From Candidatus Daviesbacteria bacterium (GTDB lineage: Bacteria; Patescibacteriota; Microgenomatia; Daviesbacterales; UBA10151), in assembly GCA_016186955.1 (NCBI GenBank), contig JACPKP010000003.1, positions 194,290 to 258,289 on the forward strand: 64,000 nucleotides of DNA, given 5' to 3'. A program made the translations under genes and the position numbers. A model generated the notes under the pieces. The model was not told where the DNA came from, did no database searches, and saw only the letters and a program-made list of their open reading frames with translations. Shown one piece after another: positions 32,330 to 38,041 of the stretch (position 1 is the first letter of the stretch; the number at the start of each line of letters is the position of its first letter).

Positions 32330-32968
32330 ATGCCAAACAAAGAAAAGTTAAATTTCGGGATATGGATAGAGCTTTGGGAGAAATCAGGAGCGCAGGGTGA
32401 CCCCCAGCCTCTTTATTGGGAGCTCAATGACGCCTATACCGCCAAAGACAGGTATTACCATAACGGCAGGCATATCAATGCCGGTTGGTATGAGCTTAAA
32501 CTGGTGATACCAAAGCCCAGGCGTCCATTGCAGCTTGGGTTTGCCATTGCCGGGCATGACTTTATCCAAAACCGGGATGGGAAAGACGCTGATGAAATTG
32601 AAAGCGCCAATTTTATGTACCAGAGGTTAGGGGAGGCAAACCTGCCGAGGTATTTCAGGAGGGATGTGAGTAAACTTATTCTGGTTACAGACCACCAGAC
32701 ACTGCCGAGAAACTATGATGAAAAAGTTAGCGCCGATTTAGACCTTGTGGTTTTTGGAAAAAGCGGAGAAGAATTTGATTTGTACTGCGCAGGCACAAGA
32801 ATGGAGTATAAACATGTACCTGATGAAGTCTACAACTCAACCAGGGTATGGCTACTGGGAAAATTTTTAGGGAGAGAACGTATATATTATACGGATTACT
32901 TTAAAAGATATGAAGCCCAGGCCAGGATAAATTTGCAAAGGGAGATTGACCGCCTGTCAAATACCTGA
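32330..32968 (+). CDS. hypothetical protein, possible HD-superfamily phosphohydrolase
   Basis: YHNGRH ... AIAGHDF spacing reminiscent of HD motifs I/II; weak. Confidence 0.35.
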   Translation: MPNKEKLNFGIWIELWEKSGAQGDPQPLYWELNDAYTAKDRYYHNGRHINAGWYELKLVIPKPRRPLQLGFAIAGHDFIQNRDGKDADEIESANFMYQRLGEANLPRYFRRDVSKLILVTDHQTLPRNYDEKVSADLDLVVFGKSGEEFDLYCAGTRMEYKHVPDEVYNSTRVWLLGKFLGRERIYYTDYFKRYEAQARINLQREIDRLSNT

Positions 32969-32983
32969 CCCCCTAACCTATAA

Positions 32984-33718
32984 TTGACAAAAACTTTCTT
33001 GAAGTTTATGCTTCGCAAGAATATGGGTTTATCTGAAGAAATCTTAGAAAACAGGGCCAGGATTAAAGAGGTGTTTGACAGGGGGTATGAAAAGGCTATA
33101 GTCAGTATGCCAAAGCCTTGTAACGAACTCCCCCCAGGATTTTTTAAAAAAGAACAGTTGGAGAGGTTTTTAAAATCAGACCCTTTAATTACCGGGACTG
33201 TGGAAGAATTTATGGATGAAGCAGGGATTTTTGATTACCGGTTGGTGAAGGAATTTTGGCTTGATGAAACTGTTTACCGTCCTACGAAAATGGCATATAA
33301 AATGGCATTTGGTGAGTACTCTATTGCAAATTGCGCAAAAACCGGATGTTTGAGCTGCGGTAAAATGTCAGAGTATGCTTGGAGGGCCAACTTTTCAGCG
33401 CACCACGCTTCTTTCTTTTATAATCCAGGCAGAAATACCAAAACAGAGTTGCTGGTTGCAAGATGTACAATCCTGGCGCCCAATAAGAACAAAGATAATG
33501 GAAGTTGGTTGGAGCTAGAAAAGGCTTTAAAATATTTGCGGTCTCCTGGTTCAACTTTTTTGGTTCATCCCCATGTTTGTGTGTGGGAAATTACCAGGGA
33601 ATCTGTCAGGGATATCCTGACAGTAATTTTAAGCAACCCGAATTTAAAGTTGGATCTTTTAGGCTCTGGCGACGGGACATCTAATTACCAGAAAGAAAAT
33701 TTTCATGGCAAAACTTAA
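32984..33718 (+). CDS. hypothetical protein
   Basis: 244 aa ORF, Cys-containing, no recognised family. Confidence 0.4.
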   Translation: MTKTFLKFMLRKNMGLSEEILENRARIKEVFDRGYEKAIVSMPKPCNELPPGFFKKEQLERFLKSDPLITGTVEEFMDEAGIFDYRLVKEFWLDETVYRPTKMAYKMAFGEYSIANCAKTGCLSCGKMSEYAWRANFSAHHASFFYNPGRNTKTELLVARCTILAPNKNKDNGSWLELEKALKYLRSPGSTFLVHPHVCVWEITRESVRDILTVILSNPNLKLDLLGSGDGTSNYQKENFHGKT

Positions 33719-35996: not shown

Positions 35997-37286
35997 ATGG
36001 CGATCCTCAAAGAGAAAGATGCGGTAGAATATTTGACAGCGGTTAAAAATTGCATTCATCCAGATGATAATTTTTCGCACCTTCAGATGGTTAAAAAAAT
36101 GTTGGAGATTGAAGCAGCATTTATCCAAAGGCTTATGGAAGACCGGAGGGAGCTTGCCTCAGTCCGGATTGATGCCACAGGTTTTCCAAAACTGGAAGAT
36201 TGGTGGACCGACATTAAACTTGCTTTTTCGGAATATGATCAGGTAAGGTTACAGAGAAAAAGGTTAATGGAACCTTTTTCCCAACAGCTTTTGAACGCCA
36301 ACAGTGAAGGTATAGCAGCCCAAGCAATTAATGTAGCTAAAACTTTCTCTTCAGAACATCTTTTCGGCGCGGCCTTTAAAGGGGTATCAGGACCCCAAAG
36401 GAATTTTTTGTTGAAAGGGAGTGGTGAAGAAAAAGTTATTTATCTTGATCCCATATACCCCGGCCGTTTAATGTCAATTCACAGAACATCTGCTTTCCAG
36501 GCAAAAAATTTTTACCCGGATGCTCCAAATTATCACAAATTTGGTTATTGCTCAGTTGATTCAATCCAAGCTATGCCTGTAATCCCGCTTAAAGCTGGGT
36601 TGAAATTTATAGGTTCAAGGGCGCCTTTTATAATCTATACAGATGTTGAAACCGGAAAAATTCAAATTCTTGATTCAAATGCACTTCTTAAAAGGTGCGG
36701 CAAAAAAAATATTCAAAGTATCAAACTTGATGAACACGGCCACCCGCTGACCTGCCAGACATACCGAAGGCGGGGTAGTGCAGATGGCCAGGTGGATTAT
36801 ATAACCGAAGATATTGAGGCTAAGGATTTAACTGCCCCTTGGGAAAGGAATGAAATAGAGAAAAAGTTTGAGGGGTTGCACCCTGGTTTGCTCAGGACAT
36901 TTTTAGAAGCAGACCTTTATGGCGCTGACAGTGAAACTTTAGTCAATATGCTGCCTGAACTAAATATGTTCATGGCAGATACTTTGGATTTTTTACAAAC
37001 CTCAGTAAATGCCCAAATCTCAGGTGAGGAATTCATAGCAGGCGGGCAAAGACTGGGGAAAAAAACCGGCGAAATTTTTGGTTATATTGAAGACAATAAA
37101 CTCCGCACAACTTTACAGCTGTTTATGGCGGAAGCAGCAAAACCTGTAATAGGACCGGAGACTCCGGCCAAAGAAACAACAATATCTTTAATGGAAAATT
37201 GCAGTTGTGCAGCCTGCAGGTCAACTTTTGAAAAAACTCTCCCCACCCCTACCGCAGCCCGTAAAAAAATATTTGGAATATTTTAA
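35997..37286 (+). CDS. hypothetical protein, paralogue B (of 33705..34907)
   Basis: MAILKEKDAVEYL..CIHPDDN..IDATGFPKLEDW, FEGLHPGLLRTFLEADLYG. Confidence 0.5.
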   Translation: MAILKEKDAVEYLTAVKNCIHPDDNFSHLQMVKKMLEIEAAFIQRLMEDRRELASVRIDATGFPKLEDWWTDIKLAFSEYDQVRLQRKRLMEPFSQQLLNANSEGIAAQAINVAKTFSSEHLFGAAFKGVSGPQRNFLLKGSGEEKVIYLDPIYPGRLMSIHRTSAFQAKNFYPDAPNYHKFGYCSVDSIQAMPVIPLKAGLKFIGSRAPFIIYTDVETGKIQILDSNALLKRCGKKNIQSIKLDEHGHPLTCQTYRRRGSADGQVDYITEDIEAKDLTAPWERNEIEKKFEGLHPGLLRTFLEADLYGADSETLVNMLPELNMFMADTLDFLQTSVNAQISGEEFIAGGQRLGKKTGEIFGYIEDNKLRTTLQLFMAEAAKPVIGPETPAKETTISLMENCSCAACRSTFEKTLPTPTAARKKIFGIF

Positions 37287-37309
37287 GGATGATGGGAACT
37301 TCAGGATAA

Positions 37310-38041
37310 TCAATTTTTTGTCCCGGCGTAGATAGTATTTATCAGCCCCTCCAGGTCACTGAAATATTTTTTGCCTGTTTCGGATTGTTTTACATATTTT
37401 TTATAATTTTCCCAAGACTCCTCCCCTTCAAACCTGACAGCTAAAGCCTCGGCTAAATCTTCATAAACAAGTTCACCTTCATCATAGAACTTGCTCCCAC
37501 CGGTATTTTTCATCTCATCAAGCATGGACAAAGGCCTTCCTGAGGCCCGAAGACTTTTTACAAGTTCCTCAATAAACTTGATTGAATCATCTAAGTTTGC
37601 ATTAGGATACAACTTCTCAAGCGCACCAACCATTTCATAGAATATTGCCACATGAGACAGCTCATGGAAAATTTTGCTTTGGAGATCCTGGTCATCGTCT
37701 TTAAATTCGCCCATAAATGTTAATTTGCGTATCCCGGGAGGCCTCGGGAGATTGCCGATCTCCATCCTGGTTTTGGGGATAGGTTCACCTGTTTGCCTGA
37801 TGAATGAACCTGCCAAAACAGAATATGTGTTATAGACGTCTGTCCCCTCCTCCGGAGAGGAAATGGTTCCGAAGCGTTCTAAAACTTCACCTGCCTTTTC
37901 GTGAGGCAGTGTTGTCCTTGCCTGCCAGCTGTTGTCGATTATATCAAGGGAAACGTTGTATTTTAAACAAAGTTTTTCAATTTCCTCATTCGGGTCTTCC
38001 TGTTCTCTGGAGTTTGCGTTTTCAAATTCCTGCGGGTCCAT
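37310..38041 (-). CDS. hypothetical protein with HExxH (HELSH) motif, possible metallopeptidase
   Basis: 243 aa; single HELSH motif; acidic N-terminus. Confidence 0.4.
   Translation of the reverse strand: MDPQEFENANSREQEDPNEEIEKLCLKYNVSLDIIDNSWQARTTLPHEKAGEVLERFGTISSPEEGTDVYNTYSVLAGSFIRQTGEPIPKTRMEIGNLPRPPGIRKLTFMGEFKDDDQDLQSKIFHELSHVAIFYEMVGALEKLYPNANLDDSIKFIEELVKSLRASGRPLSMLDEMKNTGGSKFYDEGELVYEDLAEALAVRFEGEESWENYKKYVKQSETGKKYFSDLEGLINTIYAGTKN

Follow-up and report, generated by a model that had tools for sequence, protein, structure and literature searches.

Among described bacterial proteins, the nearest analogs of the genes considered here are MinD and FtsA, peripheral membrane proteins of cell division in which a globular protein is followed by a flexible linker and a short C-terminal peptide that tethers it to the membrane (...KKGFLKRLFGG in Escherichia coli MinD), FtsZ with its C-terminal docking peptide, and the helical scaffold proteins DivIVA, EzrA, and crescentin. 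The genes lie in a 64,000-nucleotide stretch of a Candidatus Daviesbacteria genome (hereafter the window), between topA (30097-32286) and pyrG (38072-39715), and encode two paralogs, A and B, of a family designated X, with a 338-amino acid (aa) helical protein, CC, encoded between them. The organism belongs to the candidate phyla radiation (CPR/Patescibacteria), ultra-small and mostly uncultured episymbionts in which approximately half of the genes have no assigned function and in which envelope organization, division, and host contact are little understood. An earlier reading of the window by a model (the original prediction) had grouped A, CC, and B with three further genes (g1, g2, and g6) as a six-gene island with a duplicated module. 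The features of central interest are as follows.

33705-34907, plus strand: A, 400 aa, family X paralog 5′ of CC
34881-34904, plus strand: tail of A, RKKRFWLF, polybasic-aromatic C terminus, candidate membrane anchor or docking peptide
34968-35984, plus strand: CC, 338 aa, predicted all-helical, coiled-coil-like partner of X
35997-37286, plus strand: B, 429 aa, family X paralog 12 nt 3′ of CC
37260-37283, plus strand: tail of B, RKKIFGIF, polybasic-aromatic C terminus after LPTPT and a disordered linker

Like MinD and FtsA, X combines a predicted globular protein and flexible linker with a short C-terminal peptide of basic and hydrophobic or aromatic residues, and X tails such as RKKIFGIF, RRKFLGLF, and KKRFSWLRI have a comparable net charge (+3 to +4). 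In contrast, X lacks both the MinD/ParA ATPase fold and the actin fold of FtsA (none of 41 members matched Pfam, and Foldseek retrieved nothing from PDB), the tails of A and B have a low amphipathic moment, and a conserved PxP lies ahead of the basic cluster. The arrangement is also reminiscent of FtsZ, as the disordered linker of X leads to a short conserved end with proline, aromatic, and basic residues that could recruit a partner or be recruited by one; however, X lacks the tubulin/FtsZ fold, GTPase motifs, and a known partner, and its residue order is basic then aromatic. CC resembles DivIVA, EzrA, and crescentin by analogy only, being predicted all-helical, rich in charged residues, with heptad-type periodicity, and encoded beside its presumed client; one X array additionally adjoins a DivIC gene. 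CC nevertheless shares no sequence similarity with these scaffolds, and its tertiary model is of low confidence (predicted local distance difference test [pLDDT] 46).

A two-component module of CC and X

The proposed functional unit at this locus is a two-component module in which the helical CC gene stands immediately ahead of an approximately 400-aa X gene, present in single or multiple copies. Nine independent loci besides the window were examined by searching their six-frame open reading frames (ORFs) with the six window proteins and with hidden Markov models (HMMs) of X and CC, yielding the following gene orders.

L006: DivIC, CC (302 aa), X447, X402, X411, X416, 134-aa gene
L007: CorA, CC (312 aa), X449, glycogen phosphorylase
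L011: RecG, CC (303 aa), X420
L012: CC (303 aa), X401, unrelated gene
L005: CC (truncated), X406, large membrane protein
L010: X471, X458, X419, with the contig beginning at the first X
L004 (most divergent): fragment resembling an X C terminus by eye, then three confirmed X genes
L008: X428 at a contig edge
L013: probable CC C terminus, X (37% identical to B), X, g6 homolog (49%) on the minus strand, pyrG (78%)

A CC homolog was detected directly 5′ of X in L005, L006, L007, L011, and L012 (phmmer E=3.5e-5 to 3.6e-11, with the CC HMM also used), as CC lies directly 5′ of B in the window, and CC precedes X in every other locus where the gene 5′ of X is visible and readable. The probable upstream CC of L013 gave a weak score (7 bits) from a truncated ORF, but in register. 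The distance from CC stop to X start is 2-12 nt, and successive X genes are separated by anything from a 4-nt overlap to 14 nt. Tandem X genes, from two to at least four, were present in five of the ten loci including the window (four copies in L006, at least three in L010, three confirmed in L004 with a possible fourth by eye, and two each in L013 and the window), with one visible copy in the others. The flanking genes vary between loci and are mostly housekeeping genes (RecG, CorA, glycogen phosphorylase, DivIC, topA, and pyrG). Because one X precedes CC, the order A, CC, B in the window is atypical. A and B do flank a helical protein gene, as originally described; the proposed duplication of a module around that gene goes too far: the duplicated gene is X only, and tandem X arrays recur in the family. 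Outside the window, g1 and g2 were never seen beside X, and g6 was seen there again solely in L013, which is syntenic. The vague six-gene island is thereby narrowed to a defined, recurrent two-protein module, of which g1 and g2 are unrelated neighbors.

Three of these loci have further features. L013 (CAZFVS010000074.1, 5.4 kb) is labeled as an “uncultured Gammaproteobacteria” metagenome-assembled genome (MAG), yet its gene order (X, X, g6, pyrG) follows that of the Daviesbacteria window, its pyrG is 78% identical, and its G+C content is 41.6%; the contig is probably mis-binned. In L006, a tyrosine integrase gene and a gene for a coupling protein of TraG/VirD4 type (DUF8128 plus TraG-D_C) lie 1-5 kb 5′ of the four-copy X array (959-4478), the coupling protein gene being approximately 2 kb from it, and in L004 a Y1-transposase-like gene (3804-4508) lies 3′ of the X array. 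Only these last two loci have an integrase or transposase-like gene nearby; no defense genes were found in any examined neighborhood, and no phage genes near the X-CC loci.

A and B are unambiguous paralogs (28% identity over 389 aa, E=1e-36 by BLASTP; A versus the X-family HMM, E=2e-105), and the shared N-terminal and C-terminal blocks quoted in the original prediction are real. Similarity at the DNA level is confined to the first approximately 40 nt of both genes, which makes the duplication an ancient one. The identity of B to its ortholog P0003 is 37%, where pyrG of the same pair is 78% identical, indicating that X evolves fast. The family is also extremely rare. When 1.84 billion protein representatives were searched exhaustively by HMMER with a profile of A and B, 51 relatives were recovered at E≤1e-3, 22 of these at E≤1e-30, and all 20 members checked were singleton clusters, each represented by one to three short contigs from metagenomes or MAGs. 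A word-indexed search of 5.8 billion proteins returned only B itself when queried with B alone, and almost nothing beyond the queries with the 41-sequence X alignment. Among GTDB species representatives, the motif [ILV]D[AS]TGFPE[LI] gave 35 matches, approximately the number estimated by chance and none of them confirmed, while a second motif scan found only the L013 contig; a scan of JGI metagenomes yielded one locus. The X-CC module is known from a few short environmental contigs and one labeled CPR genome, the Candidatus Daviesbacteria genome in which B is annotated as a hypothetical protein (HYW46_01775).

CC and X resemble no known family, and X resembles no known fold. Neither X nor CC gave a match in Pfam, NCBIfam, PHROGs, PADLOC, PDB sequences (for X, with the family profile), phages, plasmids, or IMG/VR. 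No description of the module was found in the literature. The module fits no known system, with the caveat that CPR genomes hold many such orphan families. A helical gene directly 5′ of an approximately 400-aa gene does recall the scaffold-capsid order of phages, and one of the 41 X members has a marginal match to a PHROG “virion structural protein” (E=0.008); no Pfam or PHROG family recurs among the 41. Yet it is highly improbable that the module is a prophage remnant encoding, for example, a scaffold protein with a capsid or other structural protein, as no relatives of X were found in IMG/VR, GenBank phages, or PLSDB plasmids, no phage genes lie nearby, tandem capsid-gene paralogs would be unusual, and a Foldseek search with the B model gave no match to HK97-type or other viral structures (PDB and BFVD; see below).

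Predicted structure, C-terminal tail, and possible roles

The structure of B was predicted by AlphaFold2 with the 41-sequence alignment (mean pLDDT 79.9, predicted template modeling score 0.77, 255 residues at pLDDT ≥90). The model consists of an N-terminal strand and helices, a seven-stranded beta region interrupted by two insertions that are disordered and rich in indels (approximately residues 165-198 and 230-285), and a C-terminal three-helix segment, after which residues 391-429 are disordered (pLDDT <50). The family as a whole is predicted to share this build, with a compact alpha/beta core, approximately 100 strongly conserved N-terminal residues, indel-rich variable loops, and a C-terminal helical bundle, followed in most members by a disordered linker and a tail of the form (L/I)PxP-[KR]2-4-[FW]xx[LIF]. 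Foldseek found no counterpart of the B model, its best scores being E=0.42 for PDB and E=0.37 for BFVD.

Polar conservation in X is highest at K203 (100%, the only invariant polar residue), Y12 (95%), R87 (93%), and D72 (88%), followed by Q374, D306, E39, and D206; G62 is also invariant. In the predicted core, K203, G62, R87, Y12, and D72 would lie on or beside neighboring strands and helices, as might be expected if X were an enzyme or small-molecule binder with a site formed by K203, R87, D72, and Y12 and with CC as a regulatory or localizing partner. We consider this distinctly unlikely. X has no conserved nucleophile or metal-binding set of His, Cys, or Ser residues, no enzyme family or fold match was found, B itself lacks the commonly conserved D206, and tandem diverged paralogs with hypervariable loops are atypical of a metabolic enzyme. 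Because A and B show no metabolic-enzyme homology and the CC-X neighborhood is conserved, the combination of findings named in the original prediction as its own refutation was not encountered. An aspartic protease-like “D(A)TG” motif in X was considered and rejected, since D59 is not conserved (below a 70% threshold), as was a flagellin-like identity (no Foldseek match).

The X tail is compositionally distinct. When scored for a net charge of at least +2 together with at least three large hydrophobic residues within the last 14 residues, 29 of 41 X members qualified, as compared to 11 of 41 control C termini of proteins from the same window (Fisher p=1.4e-4), and the mean tail net charge was +2.85 versus +0.73 (p=6e-7). 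Typical tails are LPTPTAARKKIFGIF (B), VRKKRFWLF (A), APRRKFLGLF, LPSPKKRFSWLRI, and PKLQRKKWFGII, and a proline precedes the basic cluster in 36 X sequences. The helical hydrophobic moment of the tails is marginally above that of controls (p=0.036) and is low in A and B, for which reason “polybasic-hydrophobic anchor or docking peptide” is a safer wording than “amphipathic helix”. Two other assignments of the tail were rejected, namely a beta-clamp-binding motif (no Gln, and a polybasic cluster precedes) and an LPXTG or PEP-CTERM sorting signal (wrong order of elements and no transmembrane stretch). In three X members of 525-532 aa (P0009, P0022, and P0025), an extra C-terminal domain of approximately 130-140 aa replaces the short basic-aromatic tail; in a Rosetta-stone test, these extensions matched nothing else in the data gathered.

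CC is predicted to be all-helical, with helices of up to 45 residues, in a single-sequence model whose tertiary structure is unreliable. Hydrophobic residues recur with a 3.5-residue periodicity above that of shuffled sequences (z=3.8), and the same holds for all five CC homologs (z=2.8-4.0). This periodicity fits the coiled coil claimed in the original prediction, although a canonical coiled coil is not proven and a helical bundle would be compatible as well; “coiled-coil-like” is the description adopted here. The CC homologs also share a basic-hydrophobic stretch near the N terminus, followed by a conserved (E/Q)(T/K/A)P.

Taken from sequence features, a tentative reading, possible but short of probable, is that CC associates with X in the cytoplasm as a non-enzymatic complex, which the X tails would hold at the membrane. 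The polybasic-aromatic tails, together with the basic-hydrophobic stretch near the CC N terminus, would tether the complex to the membrane's inner face, an arrangement likened to that of MinD and FtsA with their C-terminal tails. On CC as a helical scaffold, different X paralogs may assemble together, and the variable loops of X would supply lineage-specific surfaces. No transmembrane segments were predicted in any of the six proteins between topA and pyrG, nor any signal peptide, and the conserved X N terminus is not signal peptide-like. A more specific and rather doubtful form of this proposal is that CC-X represents a lineage-restricted, membrane-associated scaffold or cytoskeleton-like assembly with a new fold in Microgenomates/Daviesbacteria-type CPR, in which X paralogs sit on a helical partner and attach through their tails, possibly at a division or host-contact site.

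Several points weigh against a membrane-held complex. Contact between CC and X is presumed, and membrane binding is read from tail composition only, with the marginal moment described above (p=0.036, low in A and B). A PxP-basic-aromatic peptide could equally be a partner-docking motif or an export signal, and the invariant Lys, together with the nearly invariant Arg, Asp, and Tyr, could form a catalytic site or bind a ligand. Finally, X is fast-evolving (37% as compared to 78% for pyrG) and extremely rare, which is atypical of a structural or cytoskeletal component and commoner in conflict or host-interaction genes.

The last of these points bears on two further explanations, toward both of which fast evolution, rarity, and copy-number variation pull. 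In one, an episymbiotic CPR bacterium exports the X proteins as effectors of its interaction with the host, with the positively charged tail as a secretion signal, CC as a dedicated chaperone or adaptor, and the loops and paralogs as the product of diversifying selection at the host interface. The divergence of X relative to pyrG, its copy number of one to at least four, its variable and indel-rich central region, and a conserved basic tail at the extreme C terminus behind a disordered linker are all consistent with export, as is the TraG/VirD4-like gene near the L006 array. However, with respect to type IV substrates, the C terminus of X is positively charged but a TraG-like gene lies near one array only; no secretion-system gene is consistently adjacent (none among 26 window proteins scanned), other loci are flanked by housekeeping genes, and the aromatic-rich tail looks closer to a membrane-interface peptide than to known type IV signals. 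An effector role is judged unlikely. In the other, CC-X is an anti-phage or toxin-like conflict system, with membrane-targeted X effectors that damage the membrane once triggered. The sporadic and very rare distribution, the rapid divergence, paralog arrays, and membrane-directed tail, the integrase near the L006 array, and the Y1-transposase-like gene near the L004 array would suit such a system, which we nonetheless regard as improbable. None of the six proteins matched PADLOC-DB (no defense family at E≤1), no recognizable nuclease, NTPase, protease, or pore domain is present, no neighborhood contains defense genes, the setting is core chromosome of normal G+C content, and phage, plasmid, and IMG/VR collections contain no relatives. 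The defense role offered in the original prediction accordingly found no support in PADLOC matches or in neighboring genes. Housekeeping contexts, the lack of defense or secretion neighbors, and absence from mobile-element collections argue against the effector and conflict explanations alike.

Whichever role applies, the module offers a confidently predicted fold without a solved or viral counterpart (by Foldseek), a clear sequence signature, and a tail that serves as a handle. A membrane scaffold or a set of exported effectors, if true, would represent a new protein architecture and lineage-specific cell biology; otherwise, X is a cleanly delimited orphan family for structural genomics. Its value is limited by rarity, at about 50 sequence clusters worldwide.

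Neighboring genes and transcription signals

The remaining genes between topA and pyrG, and the signals predicted around the six genes, are as follows.

32289-32318: promoter-like site 5′ of g1
32330-32968, plus strand: g1, 212 aa, HD-superfamily (COG4339-like) phosphohydrolase, neighbor outside the conserved module
32984-33718, plus strand: g2, 244 aa, orphan with six Cys (CAKTGCLSC)
34877-34900: terminator-like hairpin at the 3′ end of A
34906-34958: inverted repeat in the A-CC gap, 19-nt arms, 89% complementary, overlapping the promoter-like site of the next line
34929-34957: promoter-like site 5′ of CC, GTGACA-17-TAAAAT
37310-38041, minus strand: g6, 243 aa, convergent, HELSH (HExxH motif)

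Re-listing the ORFs reproduced all six genes of the original prediction exactly, in coordinates and strand, and its statement that no housekeeping homolog lies between topA and pyrG held up. None of the six proteins matched Pfam, NCBIfam, or PADLOC. Another gene caller places the g2 start at 33008, giving 236 aa. The g6 start (38041, minus strand) is only 30 nt from the called TTG start of pyrG (38072), which leaves almost no space for two divergent promoters, so either start may have been called wrongly.

The HD-type assignment of g1 was supported by a match to phrog_19425 “phosphohydrolase” (E=1.1e-17), by relatives that tblastn found among plasmids (130 records) and phages (10 records) at up to 33% identity and E=1e-23, and by the H..H / HD / D pattern of the sequence (YYHNGRH, AGHDF, VTDH, and ADLD); metal-binding motif and profile match together place it in the HD-domain phosphohydrolase superfamily. 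The relatives are annotated as “metal-dependent phosphohydrolase”, “hydrolase”, and, in one record, “NMDA receptor 2C subunit”, a label that is a known mis-annotation of COG4339-type HD proteins and on which the COG assignment of g1 rests. In common with that group, g1 is approximately 200 aa long and has the motif pattern and the PHROG match, but it differs in not matching the Pfam HD model (PF01966, at E≤1). Given the PHROG match, the plasmid and phage relatives, and the motif pattern, g1 is, as read from its sequence, a widespread stand-alone HD-type enzyme with no apparent functional link to CC and X.

For g2, no relative was found in Pfam, NCBIfam, PADLOC, PHROGs, PDB, or plasmids, and a radical SAM-like Cys motif was rejected (spacing Cx4Cx2C rather than Cx3Cx2C, and no profile match). 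The HELSH motif noted earlier is present in g6, which had no Pfam, NCBIfam, PDB, or phage match. Its L013 homolog (49% identity) is likewise placed between X and pyrG on the minus strand and reads HEIGH in place of HELSH, retaining HExxH; with respect to a zincin (zinc metallopeptidase) identity, HExxH is therefore conserved in one homolog without a peptidase match in Pfam, NCBIfam, or PDB. At most, g6 may be a lineage-specific accessory of the module.

Genes g1 through B are co-directional, with gaps of 43 nt (topA-g1), 15 nt (g1-g2), 60 nt (A-CC), and 12 nt (CC-B) and an overlap of 14 nt between g2 and A. This tight spacing agrees with the single operon of the original prediction, which remains uncertain given the promoter-like site and hairpin in the A-CC gap, neither of them statistically compelling: site counts are no higher than in shuffled sequences, and the RNA fold of the inverted repeat (-17.6 kcal/mol, z=-1.65) was equaled or bettered by 13 of 200 shuffles, which is not significant. 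The inverted repeat is possibly an internal promoter, an operator, or an RNA hairpin, and two transcription units, g1-g2-A and CC-B, are possible. Part of the repeat motif (ACCC..TAACCTATA) is found again in the g1-g2 gap (32968-32984), and an Rfam scan of the window returned no matches.

Transcription of the six genes together, as a single island with linked functions, would be in keeping with the same-strand spacing from g1 to B and the g2/A overlap, the promoter-like site 5′ of g1, and the retention of g6 beside X in one relative. It is nevertheless quite improbable. The genes g1, g2, and g6 are missing from all five non-syntenic CC-X loci, the g1 family is widespread alone, no relative of g2 was detected, g6 is on the opposite strand and kept in one syntenic relative, and a promoter-like site and hairpin intervene between A and CC; elsewhere, CC and X are the only ones of these genes to occur together. 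Nor is there a compositional island, because the G+C content of the six-gene region (0.38-0.44) equals that of its flanks.

Other features of the window

The window is ordinary core chromosome. To one side of the six genes are found MreB, MreC, PBP2, DprA, a ClpB-like ATPase, and topA, and to the other pyrG, a dCTP-deaminase-like gene, two genes for thymidylate kinases, ThyX, DnaX, and ProRS. The ClpB/ClpC-like double-AAA+ ATPase (27289-29820, plus strand, 843 aa) has a strongly hydrophobic stretch of approximately 130 residues at its start, with several apparent transmembrane helices replacing the usual Clp N-domain, and may, to judge by this stretch, be a membrane-anchored unfoldase. Between it and topA, overlapping its stop by 4 nt, is an 84-aa highly charged helical ORF (29817-30071, minus strand) whose sole match is a sub-threshold one in Pfam. 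Two large ORFs, of 920 aa (13176-15938, plus strand) and 583 aa (5861-7612, minus strand), have no Pfam match at E≤1e-3. A bacterial type IB topoisomerase (16820-17911, minus strand; Topoisom_I plus Top1B_N_bact) is encoded besides topA in this small genome. Downstream of pyrG and the dCTP-deaminase-like gene is a nucleotide-salvage cluster, comprising tandem thymidylate-kinase-domain genes (40552-42390 and 42383-43921, plus strand), of which the second also carries, as a fusion, a domain like that of nucleoside 2-deoxyribosyltransferases, and then a ThyX-domain protein of unusual length (512 aa).

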